Of a stretch of DNA of 64,000 bases, positions 29,432-46,529 are shown in pieces. The first letter of the stretch is position 1. Each line of letters opens with the position of its first letter. The position numbers were made by a program, and so were the translations under genes. The notes under the pieces were generated by a model. The model ran no database searches. It saw nothing but the letters and a program-made list of their open reading frames with translations, and was not told where the DNA came from. Where the stretch lies: the IMG/VR virus record IMGVR_UViG_3300029822_000004, positions 1 to 64,000 of that record; one strand, given 5' to 3'. The DNA is from a virus.

Positions 29432-30652
29432 ATGAAGTTTGCCCTACCACAAACTCAACTCAAAGAACGCATATCAAATTGTGAGGCTTGCGGACTCAAC
29501 AAATCCTCTAAAATACCCGTTTATGGCTCTGGTGGTATGGGATTATTGATCGTGTTCGATGGCCAAGACTCGCTTCAGCAACAAGTGAAATCATTTGGTA
29601 TTGGCTTTAGATTTGAGTTTGTGCGCAGGGCATTGAAGGAATTAGGTATTGACATAACGCATGATTGCTGGGTCACGTCGCTGATACAATGCTACAGCAA
29701 CGACTACACCAATCAGCAAGGGTCGTACTGTCTGGCCAATCTACACAATGCTCTTGATACACTAAAGCCAAAAGTCGTGCTGTTCTTTGGTGAAGCGTGT
29801 CCGAGGGCCGTACTAAAAGACACCATCAAGGGCATTTATCTGGATATGGTTCGGGGCATTGTTCACAACTCGCGGATGTTCGGTTGCAGGATGGTCTTTA
29901 CACTGTCACCCTTTCATCCGGCCAGTCAATCAGAAGAGGCGGTTATCAAAGTCATTCACCGTGATATTGCCATAGCCGCGAACTGTCTTGCGAGGCCATA
30001 TAAGCAATACAAGGCAGAAGAGGGCTGTATTGAGCTAATGAACCCCCGTAATGCGGCGCTGTGGCTCGAACGTGAGGCCGGCCATACTCAAACACGGTGG
30101 CAGGCCTTCGACTATGAAACGAACAGTTTAAGGCCCTATAATGACACGGCTGAGTTAGTGTCCTGCGCCATAGCCGACACGCCAGATCACGTTGTATCCT
30201 TCATGATTGACGATGTTACCACCGGGCCACTAAAACGCTGGCTGACATCACGGCATATAAAGAAAATTGCACACAACACGGCATTTGAGAGGGCGTGGTC
30301 AATCGTCAAGCTCGGTGTGGCTCCAGAGATGCTTATTGCTGACACGATGCTGTTATTTCACGCCATGGACAACCGCAAGGACAAGGTACGGTCAATCAAG
30401 TTCCTGGGGCCGATGCTCACGGGCTGTCAAATATGGAATGAGCATATTGAGGGATACCTTGAGGGTGACGCGGAGGGCAGCTATGGCATTAACAAGGTCA
30501 GGCAGATACCACAACGACAACTGCTGATATACAACGCCATGGATTCGCTGATTGAGTTTCGGGTATTCGATGTGCTGACGGAGCAACTTAAGGACTACAA
30601 GAAGACATTCGCGCTGGCAAAGGAGCTGAAAAAAGAAAGGGATCAACAATGA
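29432..30652 (+). CDS. DNA polymerase N-terminal part: UDG-like domain fused to a 3'-5' exonuclease
   Basis: CxxC..PVYGSG..LLIV (UDG family-4-like); AFDYETN, AHNTAFE, YNAMD (Exo I-III). Confidence 0.8.
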   Translation: MKFALPQTQLKERISNCEACGLNKSSKIPVYGSGGMGLLIVFDGQDSLQQQVKSFGIGFRFEFVRRALKELGIDITHDCWVTSLIQCYSNDYTNQQGSYCLANLHNALDTLKPKVVLFFGEACPRAVLKDTIKGIYLDMVRGIVHNSRMFGCRMVFTLSPFHPASQSEEAVIKVIHRDIAIAANCLARPYKQYKAEEGCIELMNPRNAALWLEREAGHTQTRWQAFDYETNSLRPYNDTAELVSCAIADTPDHVVSFMIDDVTTGPLKRWLTSRHIKKIAHNTAFERAWSIVKLGVAPEMLIADTMLLFHAMDNRKDKVRSIKFLGPMLTGCQIWNEHIEGYLEGDAEGSYGINKVRQIPQRQLLIYNAMDSLIEFRVFDVLTEQLKDYKKTFALAKELKKERDQQ

Positions 30653-30882: not shown

Positions 30883-31374
30883 ATGCCAAAAGAAATCACA
30901 ATCCAAAAAGATACGTATTATAGCTGCAAACATTGTAAGGCACTATTCGAACATTTTACGGATGCTGTAGAACACGAAAAACGCTACCACAGCGCAGAAA
31001 TTTGGCACACAGAACCAATGCCAAAATATTTTATTGGTGATCTTATCGGCTTTGGTGGACATATGTACATCATAAGAGACCTTGAGCTATGCCAGAACAC
31101 CAACATGAATCTTTATTCTATTAGTGCTTACCGTGAGTTCTATACAGGAACAAAGGACGCTGAAGGCCCATTCATGTTTGAAGATAAAACAATCAAGGTA
31201 TATGAAGATGACATCACCGGAAGGATTAACAAGGGCAAGCTGCTTGAGGTCACGAGAAGGTTACTTAAAGTATACCCCTTTACGCAGGCAAAGGTTCAGG
31301 TCATGTCGGGATATGGTGATACGACACTCACGGAACTTCTTCCAGTAATAAACCTTGGATTGGGGAACGAATGA
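30883..31374 (+). CDS. Hypothetical protein with N-terminal C2H2-like motif
   Basis: CKHC...HEKRYH. Confidence 0.6.
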   Translation: MPKEITIQKDTYYSCKHCKALFEHFTDAVEHEKRYHSAEIWHTEPMPKYFIGDLIGFGGHMYIIRDLELCQNTNMNLYSISAYREFYTGTKDAEGPFMFEDKTIKVYEDDITGRINKGKLLEVTRRLLKVYPFTQAKVQVMSGYGDTTLTELLPVINLGLGNE

Positions 31375-31730
31375 TGACCATAGGAAAGCTAATCAAAGAA
31401 CAACGTGAATGGCTGAACACTAATGGCGAGTTTTCTATCCGAAAGGTCGCCAAGCGGTGCGGATTCAGCGCTACCTATTTGAGCAAGATTGAGCGGGGTG
31501 TAGAAAATTGCCCCACCATGAAAGTAATCAGCGCACTGGCAGAAGACTTACAGATGAAGGAAGATGAACTCTGTCAGGCGGCTGGACGATTGCCAGACCA
31601 TCAAGTAGAGTGGTTGGCATCAAAACAAACCCTGCTCATTGGTCTGCTGACGTATGGTTTGTATCTAACTGACAAAGAATTGGAAAAGATAAACAACTAT
31701 GCACTAAATCTCTTGAGAGAAAGGGAGTGA
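31371..31730 (+). CDS. XRE/Cro-C1 HTH transcriptional regulator
   Basis: SIRKVAKRCGFSATYLSKIERG. Confidence 0.85.
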   Translation: MMTIGKLIKEQREWLNTNGEFSIRKVAKRCGFSATYLSKIERGVENCPTMKVISALAEDLQMKEDELCQAAGRLPDHQVEWLASKQTLLIGLLTYGLYLTDKELEKINNYALNLLRERE

Positions 31731-31731
31731 T

Positions 31732-33102
31732 GTGTTAACGCCCACTACGTCTGATGCGTTCAAGTTACTCATGCGCGGTGAACAGGCCCTTACCGCCATG
31801 AGCATAAACGGCATGAAGATTGACCGTGACTACTATGCAGGTCTTGAACCAGAAATCATAAATGAAGCGGCAAAGTTGGAAAATGCAATACTTAACAGCA
31901 CCGAGATTGGTTCCGTATGGTCTGGCATGTTCTCGACGGCTGCCAATCTTGACTCTACTGACCAACTCAAAAAGGTGCTGCTGTCCACGGGCTTTGATAG
32001 ATTCAAGACAACGGAAAAGGGCGGGTTAAGTGCAGATAAGGAAGTCATTGCAAAACTCCCTTACGAATTCTCAAGTCGCTATCTCAAGTATAAACAGCTC
32101 AAGAAAGCGTGGGGGAGCATCATTCAGCCCATGCTTCGTGAGTGTGATGACAAGGGCTTCATTCACCCATTGTTCAATCTCCACACCGTATCGACCTACA
32201 GAAGCTCCGGTAGTGACCCCAATCTCCAGCAGGTAAGCAAACACGACAAGCTGATGAAGCGTTTGGTGCGTACTGGCTGCATACCACGGACACCAGACAG
32301 GCAGTTGCTGGAGATTGACCTAAAATCGAATGAAGTGTCGGTTGGTTGTTGCCTGCACAAAGACAAGCAGATGCTCAAATTTCTGCAAGACCCCGATGCC
32401 GACATGCATGAAACAGTAGCAAAGAAATACTACAGATTGAGAGCGGACGAATTCACACGGGACTTGCGAACATCTGTAAAGGGCCGGATTGTCTTTGCGT
32501 CGTTTTATGGTGCTGGATACGAGAGCATGGCGAACAGCCTCTGGGAGTACATAACCGAAGAGAATCCCAAACTGGCTACGGGCGAGGAGCTGAAGATACA
32601 TATGCAGCGCCTTGGTCTTAACAGCTTTGAGGATTGCAAGACGTATACCGAGAAGTTCTATGATTGGTACTGGCACACGCTGTTCAAGGATTATGACCAA
32701 TGGAAAACCGACATTTGGGATCATTATACAAAAGTCGGCTATGTTGATTTGCCTACGGGCTTCAGGGCAGTAAGCGCCATTGGCAAGACGCAGCTAATCA
32801 ACTTGCCAATACAGGGTGCGGCTTTTCATGTGCTGCTGGCTACCGCGATTGGCCTTGTAAACCGCATGAAGCACTATAAGCTAAAGTCGGTCGCCATAGG
32901 ACAGATTCATGACTCTGTGTTGCTTGATATCGTACCAGAAGAGCTACAGCAAATCGTTGAAATGTACATGGACTCGCAGGACGACGTTCGGAAGATGTGG
33001 CCTTGGCTGATATACCCTATCGGCGCTGAGGCTGATATATCAAAAGTGGGTGGAAACTGGTGTGATATGGAAAGTATTGGTCTTTTACAACGTGCAGCAT
33101 AA
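31732..33102 (+). CDS. Family A DNA polymerase, polymerase domain only
   Basis: TYRSSGSDPNLQQ, motif A EIDLKSNE, motif B RTSVKGRIVFASFYG, NLPIQG, motif C QIHDS. Confidence 0.92.
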   Translation: MLTPTTSDAFKLLMRGEQALTAMSINGMKIDRDYYAGLEPEIINEAAKLENAILNSTEIGSVWSGMFSTAANLDSTDQLKKVLLSTGFDRFKTTEKGGLSADKEVIAKLPYEFSSRYLKYKQLKKAWGSIIQPMLRECDDKGFIHPLFNLHTVSTYRSSGSDPNLQQVSKHDKLMKRLVRTGCIPRTPDRQLLEIDLKSNEVSVGCCLHKDKQMLKFLQDPDADMHETVAKKYYRLRADEFTRDLRTSVKGRIVFASFYGAGYESMANSLWEYITEENPKLATGEELKIHMQRLGLNSFEDCKTYTEKFYDWYWHTLFKDYDQWKTDIWDHYTKVGYVDLPTGFRAVSAIGKTQLINLPIQGAAFHVLLATAIGLVNRMKHYKLKSVAIGQIHDSVLLDIVPEELQQIVEMYMDSQDDVRKMWPWLIYPIGAEADISKVGGNWCDMESIGLLQRAA

Positions 33103-37247: not shown

Positions 37248-37255
37248 TAACTGGT

Positions 37256-37285
37256 GGTGGCCGGTGTAGTGATATGCCGGCCACC
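37256..37285 (+). other. 13-bp hairpin with GNRA loop after ssb (terminator, processing or stabilising hairpin)
   Basis: GGTGGCCGGTGTA-GTGA-TATGCCGGCCACC; weak U-tract. Confidence 0.6.
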
Positions 37286-37292
37286 TGAATTT

Positions 37293-37542
37293 GATGTTAT
37301 AGAAAGGTGGGCTTAGAAGTAGCCATCCTATAATGAGCAGGAAGAACTACCATTGGCGCTAAAAGGTCACTACTATCTAGGACAGCATATAATCTCTAGA
37401 AAGAGGATAAGGGCTGTCTGCAAGGTGGCTATGACTGATGTGCTGATGGGAAAATAGGAGTAAGTGGAGTTAAAGACTTCCACCCAGGTTAGATAATACT
37501 ATGGGGTAGTTCCTCTTGGTGTAAAAACACATCTATAACATC
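37293..37542 (+). ncRNA. ~250-nt structured RNA mimicking 23S rRNA H43-H44 (L11-binding/GTPase-associated centre) with a ~180-nt insert
   Basis: 11-bp closing stem; AGGTGGGCTTAGAAGTAGCCATCCTATAATGA and GTGTAAAAACACA align to 23S 1057-1088 and 1091-1103 with compensatory changes. Confidence 0.8.
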
Positions 37543-37585
37543 TTTTATTCATGCAGGCATCAAACAGCATCATAAATCGCACACT

Positions 37586-37798
37586 ATGATCACACCGAGT
37601 AACGTACTGTTGAACTGGATTAACGAGTTGAGTGCAAGGCGTGATGCACTGATACTCGCAACAGAAAAGATCAGCGACAACGAAAAGCGTATGGAGTCAA
37701 TGGATGAGGCATATAACATAGGAGGGCAGATAGCCAGAGCAAAGGACATGCTCGCAGACATAAACAGAGAAATAACAAACCCTAGAGGCTATCGATAG
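37586..37798 (+). CDS. Hypothetical protein
   Basis: 70-aa ORF. Confidence 0.5.
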   Translation: MITPSNVLLNWINELSARRDALILATEKISDNEKRMESMDEAYNIGGQIARAKDMLADINREITNPRGYR

Positions 37799-37807
37799 GA
37801 GTAAACC

Positions 37808-38035
37808 ATGGCAAGCCTAAACATAGCAATGACCACCATCACCTTCAGGCGCACTAGGCAGGTCAAGGAGTACGAAAGCGCCACCATTGAGATTTCCACC
37901 ACCGTACCCAAGCACCCAGAAGACGTTTCTGCCGATATTGAAAAGCTCGAACTGATTGTGGATGCGGAGCTGGACGACTATATCAATAAGCATAAACCAA
38001 AAGACATGAGTTGGGAGGTGAATCTAGACGAATGA
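37808..38035 (+). CDS. Hypothetical protein
   Basis: AGGAG RBS; RTRQVKEYES motif. Confidence 0.65.
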   Translation: MASLNIAMTTITFRRTRQVKEYESATIEISTTVPKHPEDVSADIEKLELIVDAELDDYINKHKPKDMSWEVNLDE

Positions 38036-39691: not shown

Positions 39692-39879
39692 AGAACCTGA
39701 TTGATCCTACTGCGGTAGCCAAGCTGCTTCGATGTTCGCGACAGACCATGCGTGTGTACACGTTGCAAGGCCCGCCGAGCTATCTGGTGGCATGCGCAAT
39801 AGCCTATGTACTTGGTTGCACGCCAGAGGACATCTACAGCAAAGAGGAAAGCAGAAAGGCCAGAAGGAATGCTCTCTAA
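39640..39879 (+). CDS. Small HTH protein
   Basis: VAKLLRCSRQTM..IAYVLGCTPEDIY. Confidence 0.55.
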   Translation: MRKQTANEHTKLYQYLLKNLIDPTAVAKLLRCSRQTMRVYTLQGPPSYLVACAIAYVLGCTPEDIYSKEESRKARRNAL

Positions 39880-41068
39880 AATTACATTGAAGAACATCCA
39901 AGCCCACGAGGATTTGACCTTGGAGTTTGGGCCGGGCCTCAATGTAATCCACGGCAGTACCGATAGTGGAAAGACTGCGGTACTGCGTGGTTTATTGTGG
40001 TCTGCACTGAATGATGGCAATGGCGACAAGTTGCTCAAAAACAACAACGGATCAAAAGAGTGCTCAGTTGAATTGACGCTTGATGGCCACACTGTACGAC
40101 GCTCATGGTCGAAGTCTGCCAACACGTATTCAATGGACGGTGTGAACTTCTCAGCCTTCAGGACATCGGTTCCTGCCGCAATCGCTGAAGTAGTGAACAT
40201 GGACGCAATCAATGTCCAAAGGCGGCGTGATGTGCCCTTTATGGTCTACTGGAAAGCCACCGAAAACGCCAACCAGTTCAGCCAGATGCTCGACATTGAT
40301 GAAATCGACCGTTCTATCAATGCTATCAACAAAGACGTGCGAGAAGGCCAGCAGGCGGTAAACACCATTGAGGACAATCTACTGCTATCCAAACAAAAAC
40401 TGGATGCCCTCGGGTGGGTTGATGGGGCCATGGAGGAGTTCAAGCATCTGGAAACGCTGAATGCCACCATAGACGACCACAAGGCAAAACTACAGGTTTA
40501 TACACGTTTATACGACGATTACCGTATAAATGCCAACGCCGCAGAGGCCATCCAAGATTCGATGGCGGCCCTTGAAGATGTCACCGCCATCATAGAAGCG
40601 TATAACAACGTTGTACAGCTATCAAAGGACAAACAATGGCTATCAAAGACGTGTGAAGTGTATACCGCAGAATACCGACGTTGTACTGCGCTTAAATCTG
40701 CCGAAGATGGTTACACTGAGCTTGTAACTCTGCTTTCCGATGTTACCAGAGCAAAGAATATAGCGGTAGAACGCGCGGAGCTCAACACGCTATACAAAGG
40801 CCATTTAGCCGCCGAGACCAACGTTACCAAGTATTCATATGGCAAGGACAGCTTGACGCAAATTATGGCTGTTTGTGTGCTCGCTGAGGGCCTTCCAGAG
40901 CTACGAAAGAGCGTCACTTCACTACAGGCGGCACACAGGCAGTACCAGACACAAAAACAACACTACATCAACGCAAAACAGCTACAAGAACGCACAAAGG
41001 CACAGTTCGATGCTGCAATGCCGGATGTGTGCCCATTGTGCGGCTCAGAAGGATGCAAACACCAATGA
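39869..41068 (+). CDS. SbcC/Rad50 N-terminal half (Walker A, coiled coil, Zn hook)
   Basis: LKNIQAH..GLNVIHGSTDSGKT; ends with CPLCG. Confidence 0.85.
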   Translation: MLSKITLKNIQAHEDLTLEFGPGLNVIHGSTDSGKTAVLRGLLWSALNDGNGDKLLKNNNGSKECSVELTLDGHTVRRSWSKSANTYSMDGVNFSAFRTSVPAAIAEVVNMDAINVQRRRDVPFMVYWKATENANQFSQMLDIDEIDRSINAINKDVREGQQAVNTIEDNLLLSKQKLDALGWVDGAMEEFKHLETLNATIDDHKAKLQVYTRLYDDYRINANAAEAIQDSMAALEDVTAIIEAYNNVVQLSKDKQWLSKTCEVYTAEYRRCTALKSAEDGYTELVTLLSDVTRAKNIAVERAELNTLYKGHLAAETNVTKYSYGKDSLTQIMAVCVLAEGLPELRKSVTSLQAAHRQYQTQKQHYINAKQLQERTKAQFDAAMPDVCPLCGSEGCKHQ

Positions 41069-41961
41069 AACTACTCTGCATAGCCGATGTCCACTTGAAG
41101 GAAAAGAAACCCGAATGCCGCCTTGCCGAAGAGGATTGGCTACAGGTCATTGAACAAAAGATGGCCTGCATTGGTGAAATCGCTTCGGATGCCAATGTAG
41201 ACGCCGTGGTAATAGCCGGTGATGTATTTGATGGCTGGCGTGGTGTATCATTCGAGTTCTTCAATCGCTGTGTGGTGTGGCTGAATTACATCAAAGCCAA
41301 CACCAAGGACAAGAAGATATACACCATCGCAGGAAACCATGATCTTCCTGAGCATCTCTATGAGCAGATTAGCAGGACGCCCTATCAAGCGATGTGTGTA
41401 TCTGGCGTATTCACAGACATCTATGCCGATGATACCTTGCCCTTTACCTGCATGGCCTACACCGATCAGAGAATTACAGCGTCAAAAGACATTCTGGTTG
41501 CACACAAGGGCCTCTATCTGGAAAACAAGATATTCCCAGGCGTAAATGAAAATGCGCAGGTGGGGAACTTTGTTAAGAACTGCATACCGCCCAACGTCCG
41601 ATTGGTCATAGCGGGCGACTTTCACAAACCGTTTACAACCACCATCGGAAGTACACTCGTTGTCAACTGCGGGAGCATCTTCAGACTCCGTGCAGACCAA
41701 TGCGAGTTCCAGCCTGTCGTACATATTGTCGATACCGATATGATGACAGTCGTTAGCAAAAAGCTACCATTGTCAAATCCAATCCGTAGGGACTACATCG
41801 ATGACCGCAATGACCGCAAAGAAGAGCTGAACGAAATCATTGGCAACATCGATGGCGACTTCGAGATTACACTGAACTACCGAGACAATTTCAAAAAGTT
41901 AACAGAGGCACTACCAAACCGATCCGTCATCAACTCCATCTTTGAAAGGACACTGCAATGA
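41065..41961 (+). CDS. SbcD/Mre11 metallophosphoesterase nuclease
   Basis: ADVH, AGDVFD, GNHD, AH, GDFH. Confidence 0.9.
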   Translation: MKLLCIADVHLKEKKPECRLAEEDWLQVIEQKMACIGEIASDANVDAVVIAGDVFDGWRGVSFEFFNRCVVWLNYIKANTKDKKIYTIAGNHDLPEHLYEQISRTPYQAMCVSGVFTDIYADDTLPFTCMAYTDQRITASKDILVAHKGLYLENKIFPGVNENAQVGNFVKNCIPPNVRLVIAGDFHKPFTTTIGSTLVVNCGSIFRLRADQCEFQPVVHIVDTDMMTVVSKKLPLSNPIRRDYIDDRNDRKEELNEIIGNIDGDFEITLNYRDNFKKLTEALPNRSVINSIFERTLQ

Positions 41962-42209
41962 TTGACACCAACGAACTACTGACCCTCAAGAAAAAAGCAG
42001 AAGCAGCCGTAACCGAATACAATCAGGCGGTGGGGCGATTGTCTGCCATCAAGAACCAGATTAAAGAAGCGGGGTTCAACTCCATACTCGAAGTTGAGGC
42101 AGAGATTTCACGCCTGTCAGAACTTATCCAACAAACAGAAGCAGATGTCGAATCCCGCCTGAATGAGTGGAAGGCCAAATATTCGTCACTTATCAACCGG
42201 AGCTTGTAA
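41958..42209 (+). CDS. Short coiled-coil protein
   Basis: Heptad pattern; translationally coupled. Confidence 0.6.
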   Translation: MIDTNELLTLKKKAEAAVTEYNQAVGRLSAIKNQIKEAGFNSILEVEAEISRLSELIQQTEADVESRLNEWKAKYSSLINRSL

Positions 42210-42811
42210 TGGACATCGATACATGTAAACAATCCTTAATCGATGTGTACTATCGCAGAAAAGGCTATCTTGATGACATAGAGAGAGATACAAAACGCCT
42301 TGAAACGACGAAGGTCAATCTTGAAAATCTCCTATTGACACAAGGACTCATTCAAGAAGCATCGCAAATGACCCTTGAGTGTATCAGCATTCGCATTAAC
42401 AACATCGTCACAAAGGCGTTGGCTGCCGTATTGCCAGAGCCGTATACATTCGAGTTGAGCTTCCGCATCACTTATGGGAAGTTAAGTACGGATATGCGGT
42501 TAAAAAAGGACGGCAGGCTGTATGCACTTACGGATAACGTGGGTGATGGCGTTGTTGACATTGTGGCCTTGGCATTGCGTGTGGCCATATTGTGCCTAGA
42601 CAAGCGCAAGTTACGGCGTTTGCTGGTGCTTGACGAGCCTGTAGGGGCCTTGAGCGTAGACTACCAGCCTTTAGCCGGCAAAATGCTTGAGCACCTGTCT
42701 AAGGCCCTCAATATGCAAATCATCATGGTGGCGGCGCACGGTAGCAACTACGAATTTACGGACGCCGAGGTCTTTGACTCAAGTAATTTCAGAAAAAAAA
42801 TAAAAAATTGA
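42209..42811 (+). CDS. SbcC/Rad50 C-terminal half
   Basis: Degenerate signature VGDG, Walker B LVLDEP, H-loop MVAAH. Confidence 0.82.
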   Translation: MDIDTCKQSLIDVYYRRKGYLDDIERDTKRLETTKVNLENLLLTQGLIQEASQMTLECISIRINNIVTKALAAVLPEPYTFELSFRITYGKLSTDMRLKKDGRLYALTDNVGDGVVDIVALALRVAILCLDKRKLRRLLVLDEPVGALSVDYQPLAGKMLEHLSKALNMQIIMVAAHGSNYEFTDAEVFDSSNFRKKIKN

Positions 42812-42840
42812 AGAGTTCGTGTGAACTTTTGCTTTTCCAT

Positions 42841-42851
42841 TGCTATAGTAT
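42841..42851 (+). promoter_or_regulatory. Extended -10 element TGCTATAGTAT upstream of the large ncRNA
   Basis: Matches the -10 half of the phage consensus; -35 is degenerate. Confidence 0.55.
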
Positions 42852-42855
42852 ACTT

Positions 42856-43660
42856 GTCGGAGACCTAGAGGTTAAGACCGAACTCCGGGATTACACGACA
42901 GCGGCAACGTAGCGCTGTTCACACTGATTAAGGGGTATGCTGGCGGGCTAGGTGGCGTCTCAAAAGTGCATATTCCCGAGATACTGGTAGGCCAGTGGCG
43001 TGGTTCCCCAGACGAACCGGGTGACAACCTGACAGTTAGTTTGAGCATACTTAAAAGCTCCGTGATTGCTCTTTTACATCTTGGTTTCGAGTAAGGAGTC
43101 TGAGTAGGAGGCGAAAGCTAACCTACAGTAGCCAAATCAGAGAAAAATTGCATGCGAAGTTCGGACGGTTCGCTACAATCGGGCATGCAGCCAATGGTCA
43201 ATAACGTAAGGGTATGCGCAGCCTAAAGCCAGCAATGGCCATGGCATAAGTTGGTAGGGCCGCCAACAAGATGCATACAGCGGGTGAGAACCCCGCCAAC
43301 AGGGAGCCACACAATTCAGCTCAACCAGTTGACACTTCAAGGTAACGACAGCCTGACGATGAAACAAGTGTTGGCGTAGCGATTCCAGCGCCGGACACGA
43401 CCAAGATGTAAAAGCAAGCAACCGTTAATGCGGTTTTGCCTCCTGCGTGAAAACGGGATAGACTGTAGAGGTATGGTCTATCGGTGATGTGGGTGTCTCT
43501 TTCATGGTGCAACCACGCCATGTCTGCCACACAATGAAAGCGCTTGGAAGGACGTTAGGCAAAACTAGATTTTAGTCCACCAAGGGATTATTGTGCCTTT
43601 TATGGTTTTTAATCTTGGTTTCGCGGACAGGTAACGCAACAAAAGAGCCTCCAATTAGCT
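42856..43660 (+). ncRNA. ~800-nt large structured non-coding RNA candidate (3' end approximate)
   Basis: No credible ORF; many nested long-range helices, GNRA and T-loop-like hairpins. Confidence 0.75.
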
Positions 43661-43750
43661 AACCATTATACACTTCTTTCTTTTAAGAGGTGTTTACGTT
43701 TTCAGGCTTTTCAAGCCTTAAACAAAAACACAAAAACAGGTATTATCGGC

Positions 43751-44545
43751 ATGAAGTATCTCCATCCGGGTTCACTTGGTGACATAATTTACTCAATGCC
43801 CTTCATGTTAAGCAACGAGGGTATATTTGAACCAGAAGAGCTACCAAATGCCGACATACATTTGCTTTTGGATACTACTGGCTATGGCAATGCCCGATAT
43901 GACGTTTTTCCGATTGTGACATCCATGGCGGCATTTTTAAATACACAGCCATGCATCAAAAGTGTCAATGCCCAAAGAAGTTTCAATAACGACGAAAAGA
44001 GAACCTGTATTAACCTCGGGGCTTTTCGTGATGGCCGTGTACAAATTGGCAAGGGCGATTGCATGCTCAGGTACAGGTATTTGAAAAGAATGCCCATGTA
44101 CTACAATTTGGAAGCGCCGTGGCTCGAAGTACCCAAAGAGGATAAGTACAACCATCTGCAAAACAAGATCGTCGTATTCAGGAGCCACCGTTACCGCAAC
44201 CGTCGTATGAGTTATGCACCATTGAAGCCCTACGCCGACATAATGGTGTTTATAGGCTTCGAGAATGAATACCAGGACTTTTGTACCAGAACAGGCATAA
44301 AGCCCCAATTTCAGCCTATTACGGGCATTACTCAAGCCGCCGCAATGATCCGCAATGCCGCATTTGTCGTAGGGAACCAAACGTGTTTCTTTGCGCTGGC
44401 TGAAGGCATGAAGGCCCCACGGATACTTGAAATGAGTAGCGATCTGCCAGACGTAATTCCAAAGGGCGACTGGTCTTTTGATGCCGTGGATGACACTGAT
44501 CTTGGTAACTGCCTGAAGCTCTGCGTGGCGACGTTCTTACACTAA
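43751..44545 (+). CDS. GT9-like (heptosyltransferase-fold) glycosyltransferase
   Basis: HPGSLGDIIYS, VFIG, FVVGNQT..ALAEG. Confidence 0.65.
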   Translation: MKYLHPGSLGDIIYSMPFMLSNEGIFEPEELPNADIHLLLDTTGYGNARYDVFPIVTSMAAFLNTQPCIKSVNAQRSFNNDEKRTCINLGAFRDGRVQIGKGDCMLRYRYLKRMPMYYNLEAPWLEVPKEDKYNHLQNKIVVFRSHRYRNRRMSYAPLKPYADIMVFIGFENEYQDFCTRTGIKPQFQPITGITQAAAMIRNAAFVVGNQTCFFALAEGMKAPRILEMSSDLPDVIPKGDWSFDAVDDTDLGNCLKLCVATFLH

Positions 44546-45475
44546 TGCCTTTGTAAGAATCTCAGTGTATGCGGCTTTAGTAATCGCCTTGTGTTCAGTC
44601 AGTTCTACATGCCGATTGAATAACGACTGCTGGTTGATTTGATCTAGTTGGCTTGGATTGAATGACAGGAAGCCATCTACTGCACCAAGGCGGAAGTCGT
44701 CCACCAATGTACACAAAGAAGGTATGGCCATTGATGCAGCTAGCCCACAACCATGTATTCTTGGCGACACAACAAAGCCATAGCGCCAATACAGTTCAAC
44801 CAAGTCATGCCAATCATAACAGTAATGCACGGTGGCTGTAGGGAAGCGTTTTTTGGCCAAAGGAAGCTCATCACAGCGGTGACAGACGACATCAAAGGCC
44901 ATGCGGTCAGCAAAGTAGTCAAAGCACATATCCGCTACCATGGCATTCTTTTTACCGATGCCCTGCCAGCCCTCTTCCTTGTCATACACAAAGAGCGCCT
45001 TGTCAACTACCAAATCTGCACGTTGTCTATCAGCTACAAACAATGCTGGACAGGGCATACACTTCACGCTGCGGCCAAAGAATGACGAGTATCTCTCAAT
45101 GAGGTCTTCTTGGCGCACGGTGATGAGCTTGGCGGAGTTGGCCATCTCAGATACTGTCGTGAAGTCAATGTCGCCAGCACCAAGAATAAGCAACGGAATC
45201 TTGTTGTTGTTCACGATTTCGTAGAACGTCCGCATACGTTGTGTGAAGGTCTCGGGCGTTCCTGCTATAACCGCCAAATCGATTATGGAGGGATCGTAGT
45301 CACCAAAAACGCTGTCATCTCGCTGTACGCTCTTACGGTTTATGCTCGGATGACAATTATACAGTATGGCGTTGTGTTCACCGATTGTGGATTTGATCAG
45401 ATTTATGGTGCCACGAAGAATCAGCTCGTCGCCTATATTCCATCCGCGTGTGGTCTTGTACAGCACGGTCTTCAA
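44537..45475 (-). CDS. Polysaccharide pyruvyl transferase family protein
   Basis: WNIGDELI, ITVR, PCPAL, RIHG..A..IP; TTG start overlaps the upstream stop. Confidence 0.72.
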   Translation of the reverse strand: MKTVLYKTTRGWNIGDELILRGTINLIKSTIGEHNAILYNCHPSINRKSVQRDDSVFGDYDPSIIDLAVIAGTPETFTQRMRTFYEIVNNNKIPLLILGAGDIDFTTVSEMANSAKLITVRQEDLIERYSSFFGRSVKCMPCPALFVADRQRADLVVDKALFVYDKEEGWQGIGKKNAMVADMCFDYFADRMAFDVVCHRCDELPLAKKRFPTATVHYCYDWHDLVELYWRYGFVVSPRIHGCGLAASMAIPSLCTLVDDFRLGAVDGFLSFNPSQLDQINQQSLFNRHVELTEHKAITKAAYTEILTKALV

Positions 45476-45807
45476 TCTTCTTTCCAGTCCTCTCGTTGGC
45501 GGGCGTTGGCCCTGTCTGCGGCCTTGACTAAATCGGCCTTTACTTCCGTGAGAGTGCAATTCATGTTCGATAGCTGCGTCTCAATCGCCGTGAGCCTGAC
45601 TTTGATATCGAGTTGCATCATGGAGGCCCGTCGTTCTTCTTCAACGTCAGCAGCGTTCAGGCGCAAATAGCCGCTAATGCCAGCAGTCACCAATCCAGCA
45701 TAAGCGAGCCACAGCCACAAAATATGACTCGCGATGTTGGTAATCTGGTCGCGTGGTGCTGGCGGCGGTGGTGATATCGTCCCTGGGTGCATTGTACCTC
45801 GTTCCAT
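45472..45807 (-). CDS. Single-TM plus coiled-coil membrane protein (holin-like?)
   Basis: ILWLWLAYAGLVTAGI helix. Confidence 0.5.
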   Translation of the reverse strand: MERGTMHPGTISPPPPAPRDQITNIASHILWLWLAYAGLVTAGISGYLRLNAADVEEERRASMMQLDIKVRLTAIETQLSNMNCTLTEVKADLVKAADRANARQREDWKED

Positions 45808-45932
45808 ATAGATTTATCCATGTTTTATTGGTCTTGGCGTCATCTGTAACATACCATAAAACAACGCCAAAGCAACACCGTATGCTATATTATGCACAGA
45901 CACACCTTTAAAAGATTGAAAGGATTCAAGAC

Positions 45933-46529
45933 ATGGCTATCGCTGTAGTATCATTGAAGACACCGGAGATTGATAGTTACGCAGTATATACCACGGAAAC
46001 AAACCGGCTGTATTGTCAAAAGCACAATCTGCAATATTTCTGTTATGGCCACACGCTAGACAACACCAAAACTCCCCACTGGTCTAAGCTGCTTGCACTC
46101 AAAAATCACATTATGGATTATGACTGGCTGATGTGGATAGATGCTGATGCTGCATTTGCCAACCACACTACGACCATTGAATCCATTATTGAAAACCACT
46201 CAGCGATGATATTAATGAGCAAAGGGCGGCTGTATGGCTGGAATTCTGGCGTGTTTTTATTGCGTGGTGGACAAGAGAGCGAATCTTGGCTTGATTTTGT
46301 ATTTGGCTTACATGGTACTATTTCTGGGCCATTCTATGAACAGGATGCCGTTGTGCACAGCTTTGGTCTTCCACTATATAAAGACAAAGTGATTGAGGTA
46401 CCAAAGCGACTAATCAATGTATCAATAAAAGATTACACGGCTGGGGATTTTATAGTTCACGCGCACGGTACTGACAACAAGAAAAGAGAGTCGTTCTTTA
46501 AGTCGCTGCGTCAGTCTTTGCCATCATAG
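45933..46529 (+). CDS. GT34 (GMA12/MNN10-like) glycosyltransferase
   Basis: YCQKH, WSKL, WIDAD, NSGVF, EQD, GDFIVH. Confidence 0.85.
   Translation: MAIAVVSLKTPEIDSYAVYTTETNRLYCQKHNLQYFCYGHTLDNTKTPHWSKLLALKNHIMDYDWLMWIDADAAFANHTTTIESIIENHSAMILMSKGRLYGWNSGVFLLRGGQESESWLDFVFGLHGTISGPFYEQDAVVHSFGLPLYKDKVIEVPKRLINVSIKDYTAGDFIVHAHGTDNKKRESFFKSLRQSLPS

Follow-up and report, generated by a model that had tools for sequence, protein, structure and literature searches.

A transcribed non-coding RNA of about 0.9 kb with a conserved fold in an uncultured phage, and its reading as a new family of large phage RNA

What occupies a 939-bp interval that lacks any credible open reading frame (ORF) at the end of a phage replication module? 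The interval, positions 42812-43750, lies in the 64,000-nucleotide (nt) stretch of DNA analysed here (the window), which comprises bases 1-64000 of the 74,240-bp IMG/VR virus record IMGVR_UViG_3300029822_000004. It is bounded by the stop codon of a gene for a 214-amino-acid (aa) ATPase (42811) and the ATG of a 264-aa gene (43751), and its longest ORF is one of 82 aa on the minus strand, so that the gap of ~940 bp described in an original prediction, made from the letters alone, is confirmed. That prediction had placed in the gap a highly structured RNA of ~800 nt, with a promoter-like element of its own and belonging to a large non-coding RNA (ncRNA) of a possibly new class. We find that the gap, whose RNA-bearing stretch is present once in the record, is transcribed, has no conserved reading frame, has no match among Rfam families, and displays compensatory changes and a consensus fold exceeding controls in two diverged lineages; it is a structured ncRNA, and the central proposal is thereby borne out.

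A non-coding interval transcribed far above its neighbours

A metagenome scan recovered only two contigs homologous to this region, L122 and L123. The first is collinear with the window at 94.4% identity over 5.5 kb and 98% over the gap, where the differences are substitutions and several indels of 1-2 nt. In L123 identity stands at 94.5% as far as position 42852, after which the sequence changes abruptly: window positions 42853-43067 are exchanged for ~66 unrelated nt, beyond which 43068-45886 aligns at 80%, with 72% identity inside the gap (423 of 584 aligned positions, 41 gap columns). The recombination breakpoint, between 42852 and 42853 and corresponding to L123:1748, is sharp and lies at the putative promoter of the RNA, with 212 nt of 5' domain swapped for the ~66 nt. 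Conservation across the gap is uneven, near-invariant blocks alternating with hairpins whose stems differ yet still pair; the A-rich stretch immediately 5' of the ATG of the 264-aa gene is also conserved.

The gap is non-coding. No frame is open in the window, L122 and L123 together under genetic code 11 or with any single stop codon reassigned as sense, the gap-region ORFs tested had no Pfam or PHROGs match, and a reading of the translations places the conserved nucleotide blocks in different frames in the two lineages. A recoded or frameshifted gene was likewise ruled out by the lack of a conserved frame and by the indels between near-identical strains. On the minus strand L123 alone carries a 185-codon open frame antisense to the RNA core (L123:1914-2471), which databases may come to list as a gene; neither the window nor L122 keeps this frame intact, their longest frames having 83 and 77 codons.

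The stretch is contained in 20 public runs from 14 studies of fermentation, biogas, bioreactor, landfill, wastewater, digester and manure metagenomes; six of these runs are metatranscriptomes and one is possibly the source sample. Four metatranscriptome runs (X15, X16, X18 and X20), chosen because they contain the stretch and drawn from four studies, two of which share year and habitat and may be one campaign, were mapped as contigs onto positions 40000-46500. Depth is the mean per contig, and the contigs carry no strand information; neither the uncovered parts of the 6.5 kb nor the word shares of the RNA runs (0.54-0.59) were used as evidence. A single contig spans the gap in all four runs:

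42872-44004: X15 contig, mean depth 52.5
42865-43770: X16 contig, mean depth 62.5
42868-44169: X18 contig, mean depth 223.7
42865-43741: X20 contig, mean depth 60
42865..42872, plus strand: left (5') end of the RNA, given by contig starts at 42865 (X16, X20), 42868 (X18) and 42872 (X15)
42841..42849, plus strand: promoter-like extended -10 element TGcTATAGT, read from sequence as TGCTATAGT

Other contigs within the 6.5 kb have depths of 2-15 in X15, X16 and X20 and of 4.5-31 in X18; the mean depth of the gap contig is at least 7-fold that over the neighbouring genes, and its range of 52-224 compares with 0-31 for the flanks. In X18 a 5.3-kb contig of upstream genes stands at a depth of 18.9, which indicates that the phage as a whole was expressed in that run, and the gap contig is ~12 times deeper. 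The contigs cover 877-906 nt or more, and the variants in all four are of the L122 type. Sequencing-adapter letters directly abut 42865 in X16 and 42872 in X15, and these positions are therefore real molecule ends; in X18 a separate low-depth contig terminates at 42849. The RNA is thus transcribed well in excess of the genes around it and has a defined 5' end. On the right the contigs end raggedly, at 43741 in X20 and 43770 in X16, with X15 (44004) and X18 (44169) entering the next gene, and no adapter letters occur at these right ends. We found no strong intrinsic terminator kept in L123 between the RNA and the 264-aa gene.

The contigs begin 16-23 nt past the -10-like element, which is kept as TGTTATAGT in L122 and TGCTATTGT in L123, giving TGnTAT(A/T)GT as the consensus of all three sequences. 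The promoter-like element proposed for the RNA is therefore present, conserved and placed just upstream of the observed starts, and it probably acts as the promoter of the RNA; its weak -35 accounts for its being unlisted in a promoter consensus scan.

Conserved folding and domain architecture

The RNA can be divided, based on conservation and pairing, as follows, with the gene next to it given for orientation:

42865..43066, plus strand: variable 5' domain, in the window and L122; ~66 unrelated nt stand in its place in L123
43067..43420, plus strand: central domain, a multi-helix junction closed by a long-range helix of 19 bp, 43067-85/43400-20
43421..43662, plus strand: 3' domain, with the hairpin 43457-82 and the near-invariant block 43478-43565
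43663..43770, plus strand: 3' tail, a conserved U-rich stretch with small hairpins at 43670-93 and 43702-16, in which two contigs end
43751..44545, plus strand: 264-aa gene with a predicted GT-B, heptosyltransferase-like fold, inherited together with the RNA

Single-sequence folds were compared with those of dinucleotide shuffles. The whole 805 nt gave a z-score of -1.92 on the plus strand (1 of 20 shuffles folding as well) and +0.43 on the minus strand (15 of 20). The signal resides in the central domain (43068-43418), with a z of -3.43 and none of 100 shuffles as stable on the plus strand, as against -1.24 and 9 of 100 on the minus strand; its counterpart in L123 likewise reached -3.68 (0 of 100). 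By this measure the claim of better-than-shuffled folding stands clearly for the central domain and fails for the 5' domain comprising the first ~210 nt (z +0.71; 151 of 200 shuffles fold as well), and for the 3' domain (z -1.50; 17 of 200).

Covariation was assessed on an RNAalifold consensus of the window, L122 and L123, which comprises 162 pairs; compensatory changes, in which both partners differ yet still pair, affect 21 of these, distributed over 15 of 26 helices; as only two diverged lineages are represented, each covarying pair rests on one event. When pair partners were reshuffled, 7.0±2.2 compensatory pairs remained and none of 500 trials reached 21, and sliding the 3' partners by 1-3 columns left 1-3. 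Because both controls favour a structure derived from the same sequences, a further one was added in which alignments were column-shuffled within gap and conservation classes and refolded 100 times: it yielded 9.05±2.4 compensatory pairs, with 0 of 100 reaching 21, and consensus energies of -107.0±6.8 compared with -150.5 for the true alignment (0 of 100). Covariation among homologues, which the original prediction had named among its tests, is thus present. The minimum free energy (MFE) folds of the window and L123 have in common 33 pairs in the central domain (of 112 and 121) and 9 in the 3' domain (of 76 and 80).

The consensus energy is lower on the plus strand (-150.6) than on the minus strand (-132.1), and the consensus contains 50 G-U cells against 3 A-C cells, a count that supports the plus strand and is biased by the structure having been derived on it. 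By the usual library logic, the adapter type at the left end would also fit a plus-strand RNA if the library were of the dUTP type. Together the consensus energy, the central-domain z-score, the G-U count and the position of the promoter-like element make transcription from the plus strand very probable.

Nearly all the individual pairings first listed for the RNA exist in the window, and they differ in how they fare in its relatives. The long helix 43071-85/43400-14 has 15 of 15 pairs, and 14 of 15 in L123 with one C-G to U-A swap; the hairpin 43457-82 (11 of 11, three compensatory swaps) and the helix 43148-55/43183-90 (8 of 8, one swap) are intact in all three sequences, as is 43433-41/43557-65 (9 of 9), there without any variation. 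The helix 42933-41/43044-52 is complete in the window (9 of 9) and belongs to the domain absent from L123, while 43328-37/43366-75 falls from 10 of 10 pairs in the window to 3 of 10 in L123. The pairing 43579-88/43610-19 has 7 of 10 pairs in the window and 4 of 10 in L123. Two of the listed helices are thus unsupported beyond the window's own strain. The GAAA hairpin is retained, with a 5-bp lower stem and GGC-GAAA-GCU at its tip. The element likened to a T-loop is a plain 5-bp hairpin whose stem and loop both differ in L123, and the T-loop reading was dropped as unsupported. As a description of the entire ~800 nt, "highly structured" holds for the central domain and at the level of the alignment, not for the first ~210 nt, which are replaced in L123 and fold no better than shuffles.

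Compensatory changes in the central domain fall in the closing helix, the GAAA hairpin 43104-26, the hairpin 43148-90 and the three-way element 43208-77, among others. In the 3' domain, the block 43478-43565 is free of indels and differs at 5 of its 88 nt when the window is set against L123, compared with ~80% identity in the adjoining coding DNA. A C-G to U-A swap supports the pairing 43445-48/43540-43 there; the remaining helices of this domain are invariant, and mutually exclusive ones cannot for that reason be told apart. In the window type, positions 42996-43005 of the 5' domain form a perfect 10-nt complement to the invariant loop 43511-20. The hairpin 43222-43244 has a GNRA loop, GCAA in the window and GAAA in L123, and an internal loop, CCUAAA/CAUGG and CCUAAG/CUACGG respectively, that resembles the 11-nt GAAA tetraloop receptor; judging from sequence, the invariant GAAA loop 43113-16 could dock at this internal loop. 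An 18-nt direct repeat, 43072-43089/43606-43623 (89% identical, 534 nt apart), has an inverted copy at 43400-43414 that makes the closing helix. Its copy at 43606 is not kept in L123, so it is not a conserved feature, and an alternative pairing would be possible in the window's strain only.

Absence from known families, distribution and genome setting

Searches with Rfam models at the gathering score returned nothing for the 64 kb and a tRNA-Met alone for the other 10 kb of the record. With permissive filters and a threshold of E<=10, window positions 42700-43800 and L123 positions 1700-2550 gave weak unrelated rows, none common to both. The models for GOLLD, ROOL, OLE, HEARO, raiA, group I and II introns, RNase P and transfer-messenger RNA (tmRNA; for which ARAGORN was also used) had no match, so that a comparison against Rfam, by which the prediction could have been reduced to a known class, leaves the RNA outside the known families. 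Release 15 of Rfam, which should include the 224 motifs of the survey behind the ROOL description, gave no match. One such weak row, cow-rumen-1 RNA (RF02946; 17.1 bits and E 0.69 at 43368-43408, against a gathering score of 53.4), is absent in L123 and was dismissed as chance; a pattern of 15 specified bases derived from it found 110 stretches in IMG/VR, none extending beyond 16-24 nt. Mimicry of ribosomal RNA (rRNA) at the sequence level was dropped, Rfam and BLAST against E. coli genomes with their rRNA operons having given no match. An antisense regulator of phage genes was discarded as well, since complementarity to the rest of the window never exceeds 13 nt, the chance level. A full-text literature search, which cannot be made by sequence, found no paper on a comparable RNA from digester or landfill phages.

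The genome and database searches for relatives are samples, and their negatives mean not found in those searched. BLAST with the gap gave no match in 50,697 phage records, PLSDB plasmids and E. coli genomes including the rRNA operons, tblastn with the ATPase none in the phage records, and single-protein scans of IMG/VR with both flanking proteins none. Databases contain 70 relatives of the flanking ATPase, the nearest of which belongs to a 90% cluster of 81 members. A profile scan with 33 of 71 ATPase sequences reached 10 loci in IMG/VR, sharing 55-58% aa identity, and all 10 lack both gap and RNA. The same holds for two loci found among GTDB contigs, in a Paludibacteraceae (69%) and an Acutalibacteraceae (53%) metagenome-assembled genome (MAG), and five whole viral records of distant relatives lack the RNA both by BLAST (0 of 5) and by covariance model (0 of 5). 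That covariance model, R1, built on 43428-43570, matched nothing among 11 sources beyond the three sequences used to train it. Exact searches for conserved blocks gave 0, 12, 0 and 0 stretches in IMG/VR and none in GTDB contigs; the 12 were all unrelated, mostly one coding gene in near-identical phages. BLAST with the core against the order of the Paludibacteraceae MAG found 2 of 401 genomes at E<=0.01, with 23- and 32-nt matches at the chance level, and none of the 399 genomes scored from the class to which the Acutalibacteraceae MAG belongs (two further genomes went unscored). Within the collections searched, then, the RNA is narrowly distributed, to one phage lineage with two diverged types. 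The two GTDB contigs with relatives of the phage were binned to MAGs of different phyla; as these labels disagree, at least one bin assignment is doubtful and the host is unreadable from them.

The gap directly follows a plus-strand block of ~37 kb (~5.8-42.8 kb) of replication and recombination genes, encoding helicases, a DnaB-like helicase, a DNA polymerase in two ORFs, a clamp loader, a 5'-3' exonuclease, RusA and an SbcC-like ATPase whose halves flank an SbcD-like nuclease; its final gene encodes the 214-aa C-half of that ATPase. At 39806-41068, 41029-41961, 41958-42209 and 42167-42811 an SbcC/Rad50-like ATPase is apparently split into N-half and C-half genes, between which lie an SbcD/Mre11-like nuclease and an 83-aa coiled-coil ORF, an order repeated in ORF maps of distant relatives. 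The ORFs at 29432-30652 and 31732-33102 match consecutive parts of the DNA polymerase family phrog_17 (positions 538-831 and 835-1235) and are separated by two small ORFs (30883-31730), which could be due to a split polymerase or an inserted element. A second ORF-poor gap at 37248-38010 had no Rfam match at the gathering score and no BLAST match in five records or genomes of distant relatives, which also lack the gap RNA. The original suggestion that the gap RNA and this element, an L11-site mimic in that view, may form a two-RNA host-takeover module gained no support in either direction, the transcript contigs having been mapped to 40000-46500. Shine-Dalgarno-like motifs precede 29 of 51 gene starts. 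No transfer RNA (tRNA) or tmRNA was found in the window with ARAGORN; the sole tRNA of the genome by ARAGORN and Rfam, a tRNA-Met on the minus strand at 73,695-73,769, is ~30 kb from the RNA. The base composition of the gap is ordinary, and no iterons or AT-rich unwinding element were found in the gap region; an iteron origin was dropped from consideration, an 8-nt x 2 repeat being all that was present.

The 264-aa protein had no sequence match in Pfam, PHROG or PDB. Its AlphaFold model (pLDDT 76, pTM 0.79) resembles heptosyltransferases of family GT9 (3tov, E 1.2e-5, TMq 0.49; also WaaC, WaaF and TibC), and with this predicted fold we dropped the notion that the neighbouring gene encodes an RNA-binding partner. 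The RNA and this gene fall, in L123, within one block of ~80% identity, the genes upstream being 94.5% identical.

Proposed role, alternatives and comparison with known large RNAs

We favour, with some confidence though well short of certainty, the reading that this is a stand-alone, abundant and folded ncRNA, driven by its own promoter, with a conserved core unlike known families and most likely acting in trans. An RNA of ~0.88-0.9 kb would be started on the plus strand by the extended -10 promoter at 42841-49, where the replication/recombination operon ends. The conserved portion would be a core of ~600 nt (43067-43662), composed of the central multi-helix domain with its 19-bp closing helix and the 3' domain with the 88-nt block, and preceded by a replaceable 5' extension that would be an exchangeable accessory. 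By analogy with GOLLD and ROOL, such an RNA would work in trans as a folded particle, with the invariant block and the conserved junction strands as probable working surfaces, which may contact a partner from host or phage or else other molecules of the same RNA.

Several observations weigh against this proposal. Neither the 5' domain (z +0.71) nor the 3' domain (z -1.50) beats shuffles when folded alone; each covarying pair depends on one lineage split; and the few pairs shared by the MFE folds (33 central, 9 in the 3' domain) leave much of the fold unsettled. The transcription data come from contigs without strand or local depth, in runs selected for holding the stretch. Two of the four contigs extend 250-420 nt beyond the start of the next gene, and a search for a conserved terminator found none. 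Unlike many GOLLD and ROOL loci, this one has no tRNA nearby, the nearest being ~30 kb off. Finally, no complementarity to other parts of the window exceeds 13 nt.

The read-through and the missing terminator bring up the alternative of a structured 5' leader of very great length, belonging to the glycan-modification gene or genes downstream and acting in cis by attenuation, processing or mRNA stabilisation, the abundant 0.9-kb species then being the terminated or processed leader. The continuation of the X15 and X18 contigs into the 264-aa gene (to 44004 and 44169), the lack of a strong conserved intrinsic terminator ahead of it, the inclusion of RNA and gene in one ~80% block in L123 next to 94.5% upstream, and a predicted GT9-like rather than RNA-related fold of the product all speak for such a leader. 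However, the X16 and X20 contigs stop at 43770 and 43741 with none on the gene body (missing contig cover being weak evidence), and ~890 nt with a multi-domain core of ~600 nt far exceeds the described bacterial cis-regulators. Moreover, a promoter-like TAAACA-16-TATTAT at 43719-46 could serve the gene alone, the A-rich stretch before whose ATG is conserved. We accordingly regard a leader as unlikely, while giving it serious weight.

Other explanations appear far less probable. That the gap holds no functional RNA, being a decayed gene or a DNA-level element such as a packaging or recombination site that happens to be transcribed, might be suggested by the 185-codon minus-strand frame of L123, the confinement to one phage lineage and the recombination breakpoint at 42852; yet that frame is lost in the window and L122, the conserved blocks lie in different frames with no protein-family match, compensatory changes and consensus energy go far beyond the column-shuffled controls, the 88-nt block is near-invariant beside neighbouring coding DNA of ~80% identity, and depth is at least 7-fold that of the neighbouring genes, all of which makes this improbable. 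A replication-related transcript, made where the replication module ends and serving as a structured pre-primer or an origin transcript on the model of ColE1 RNA II, would fit the position directly after the 37-kb block and the possession of its own promoter. We give it very little credence, considering that the region has no iterons or AT-rich unwinding element (only the 8-nt x 2 repeat) and an ordinary composition, that distant relatives share the replication genes without the RNA (10 of 10 IMG/VR and 2 of 2 MAG loci; 0 of 5 records have it), and that its very high steady-state level is unexpected for a primer. It is similarly hard to believe that the RNA is a highly divergent member of GOLLD or ROOL beyond the reach of the Rfam covariance models. 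Being phage-encoded, of similar size and highly expressed, with a variable 5' part and a conserved 3' core, it has the appearance of one (PMC12286853 and PMC5737381 for the traits of the two families), but two sequences 72% alike gave no match at E<=10 with permissive filters, and there is no adjacent tRNA.

Returning to the stand-alone RNA acting in trans, a more specific and more speculative version of it, to which we assign only a small likelihood, is that it forms an independent, third class of giant phage RNAs and, as GOLLD and ROOL do, assembles into a quaternary structure of RNA alone, or else is a ribozyme. The 88-nt block and the GNRA loops might then make inter-subunit or catalytic contacts, with the 5' domain as cargo or linker. 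Were an RNA-only assembly to be found, large self-assembling RNAs would be a recurrent phage invention and not two oddities. The RNA offers direct expression evidence from environmental metatranscriptomes, a defined 5' end and a compact core of ~600 nt transcribable in vitro, while the occurrence of the phage in many engineered anaerobic systems (the 20 runs of 14 studies) provides material for finding the host and a partner of the RNA. More generally, metatranscriptome contigs are able to validate ncRNA candidates of uncultured phages.

How does the RNA compare with known systems? With long 5' leaders and riboswitch attenuators it shares a position upstream of, and partial co-transcription with, a same-strand gene; it differs in its multi-domain core and in having no conserved expression platform or terminator, and it is ~5-10 times longer than typical leaders. 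OLE, raiA, HEARO, the group I and II introns, RNase P and tmRNA are alike in size class and complex multi-domain folding. None of them has an Rfam match here, there are no flanking exons and no intron-encoded ORF, and, the introns excepted, these are cellular genes, unlike the phage RNA.

Large intricately folded RNAs of bacteria and phages are rare. For those described, of function unknown, the suspicion is that they carry out unusual biochemistry or form cages made of RNA alone (PMC12286853, PMC5737381). ROOL has a mean length of 581 nt and few highly conserved nucleotides (PMC5737381), with six multistem junctions as well as three pseudoknots (PMC5737381, PMC12286853). The ~600-nt conserved core of the gap RNA is near that mean, and several multistem junctions, the phage context and the anaerobic fermenting habitats are further likenesses. 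The differences are the missing Rfam match, the lack of pseudoknots established in the alignment, a location not near tRNAs, and long near-invariant stretches, seen in a comparison of two lineages, where ROOL is described as having few conserved nucleotides. GOLLD exceeds 800 nt in many members, has a conserved 3' and a variable 5' region, and is often found beside tRNA genes (PMC12286853). Both GOLLD, by that source's account, and the gap RNA are phage-encoded and strongly expressed, the latter as a ~0.9-kb transcript; both have GNRA-capped hairpins and many junctions, and in both a conserved 3' core follows a replaceable 5' part, a resemblance of layout and not of homology. The gap RNA differs in having no match to the Rfam model at E<=10, no adjacent tRNA and a distribution limited to one phage lineage. 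As it resembles GOLLD and ROOL in kind, fails the test of their models, has no Rfam match and stands apart from any tRNA, our reading is that it represents a new family of large ncRNAs in phages, nearest to these two and a member of neither.

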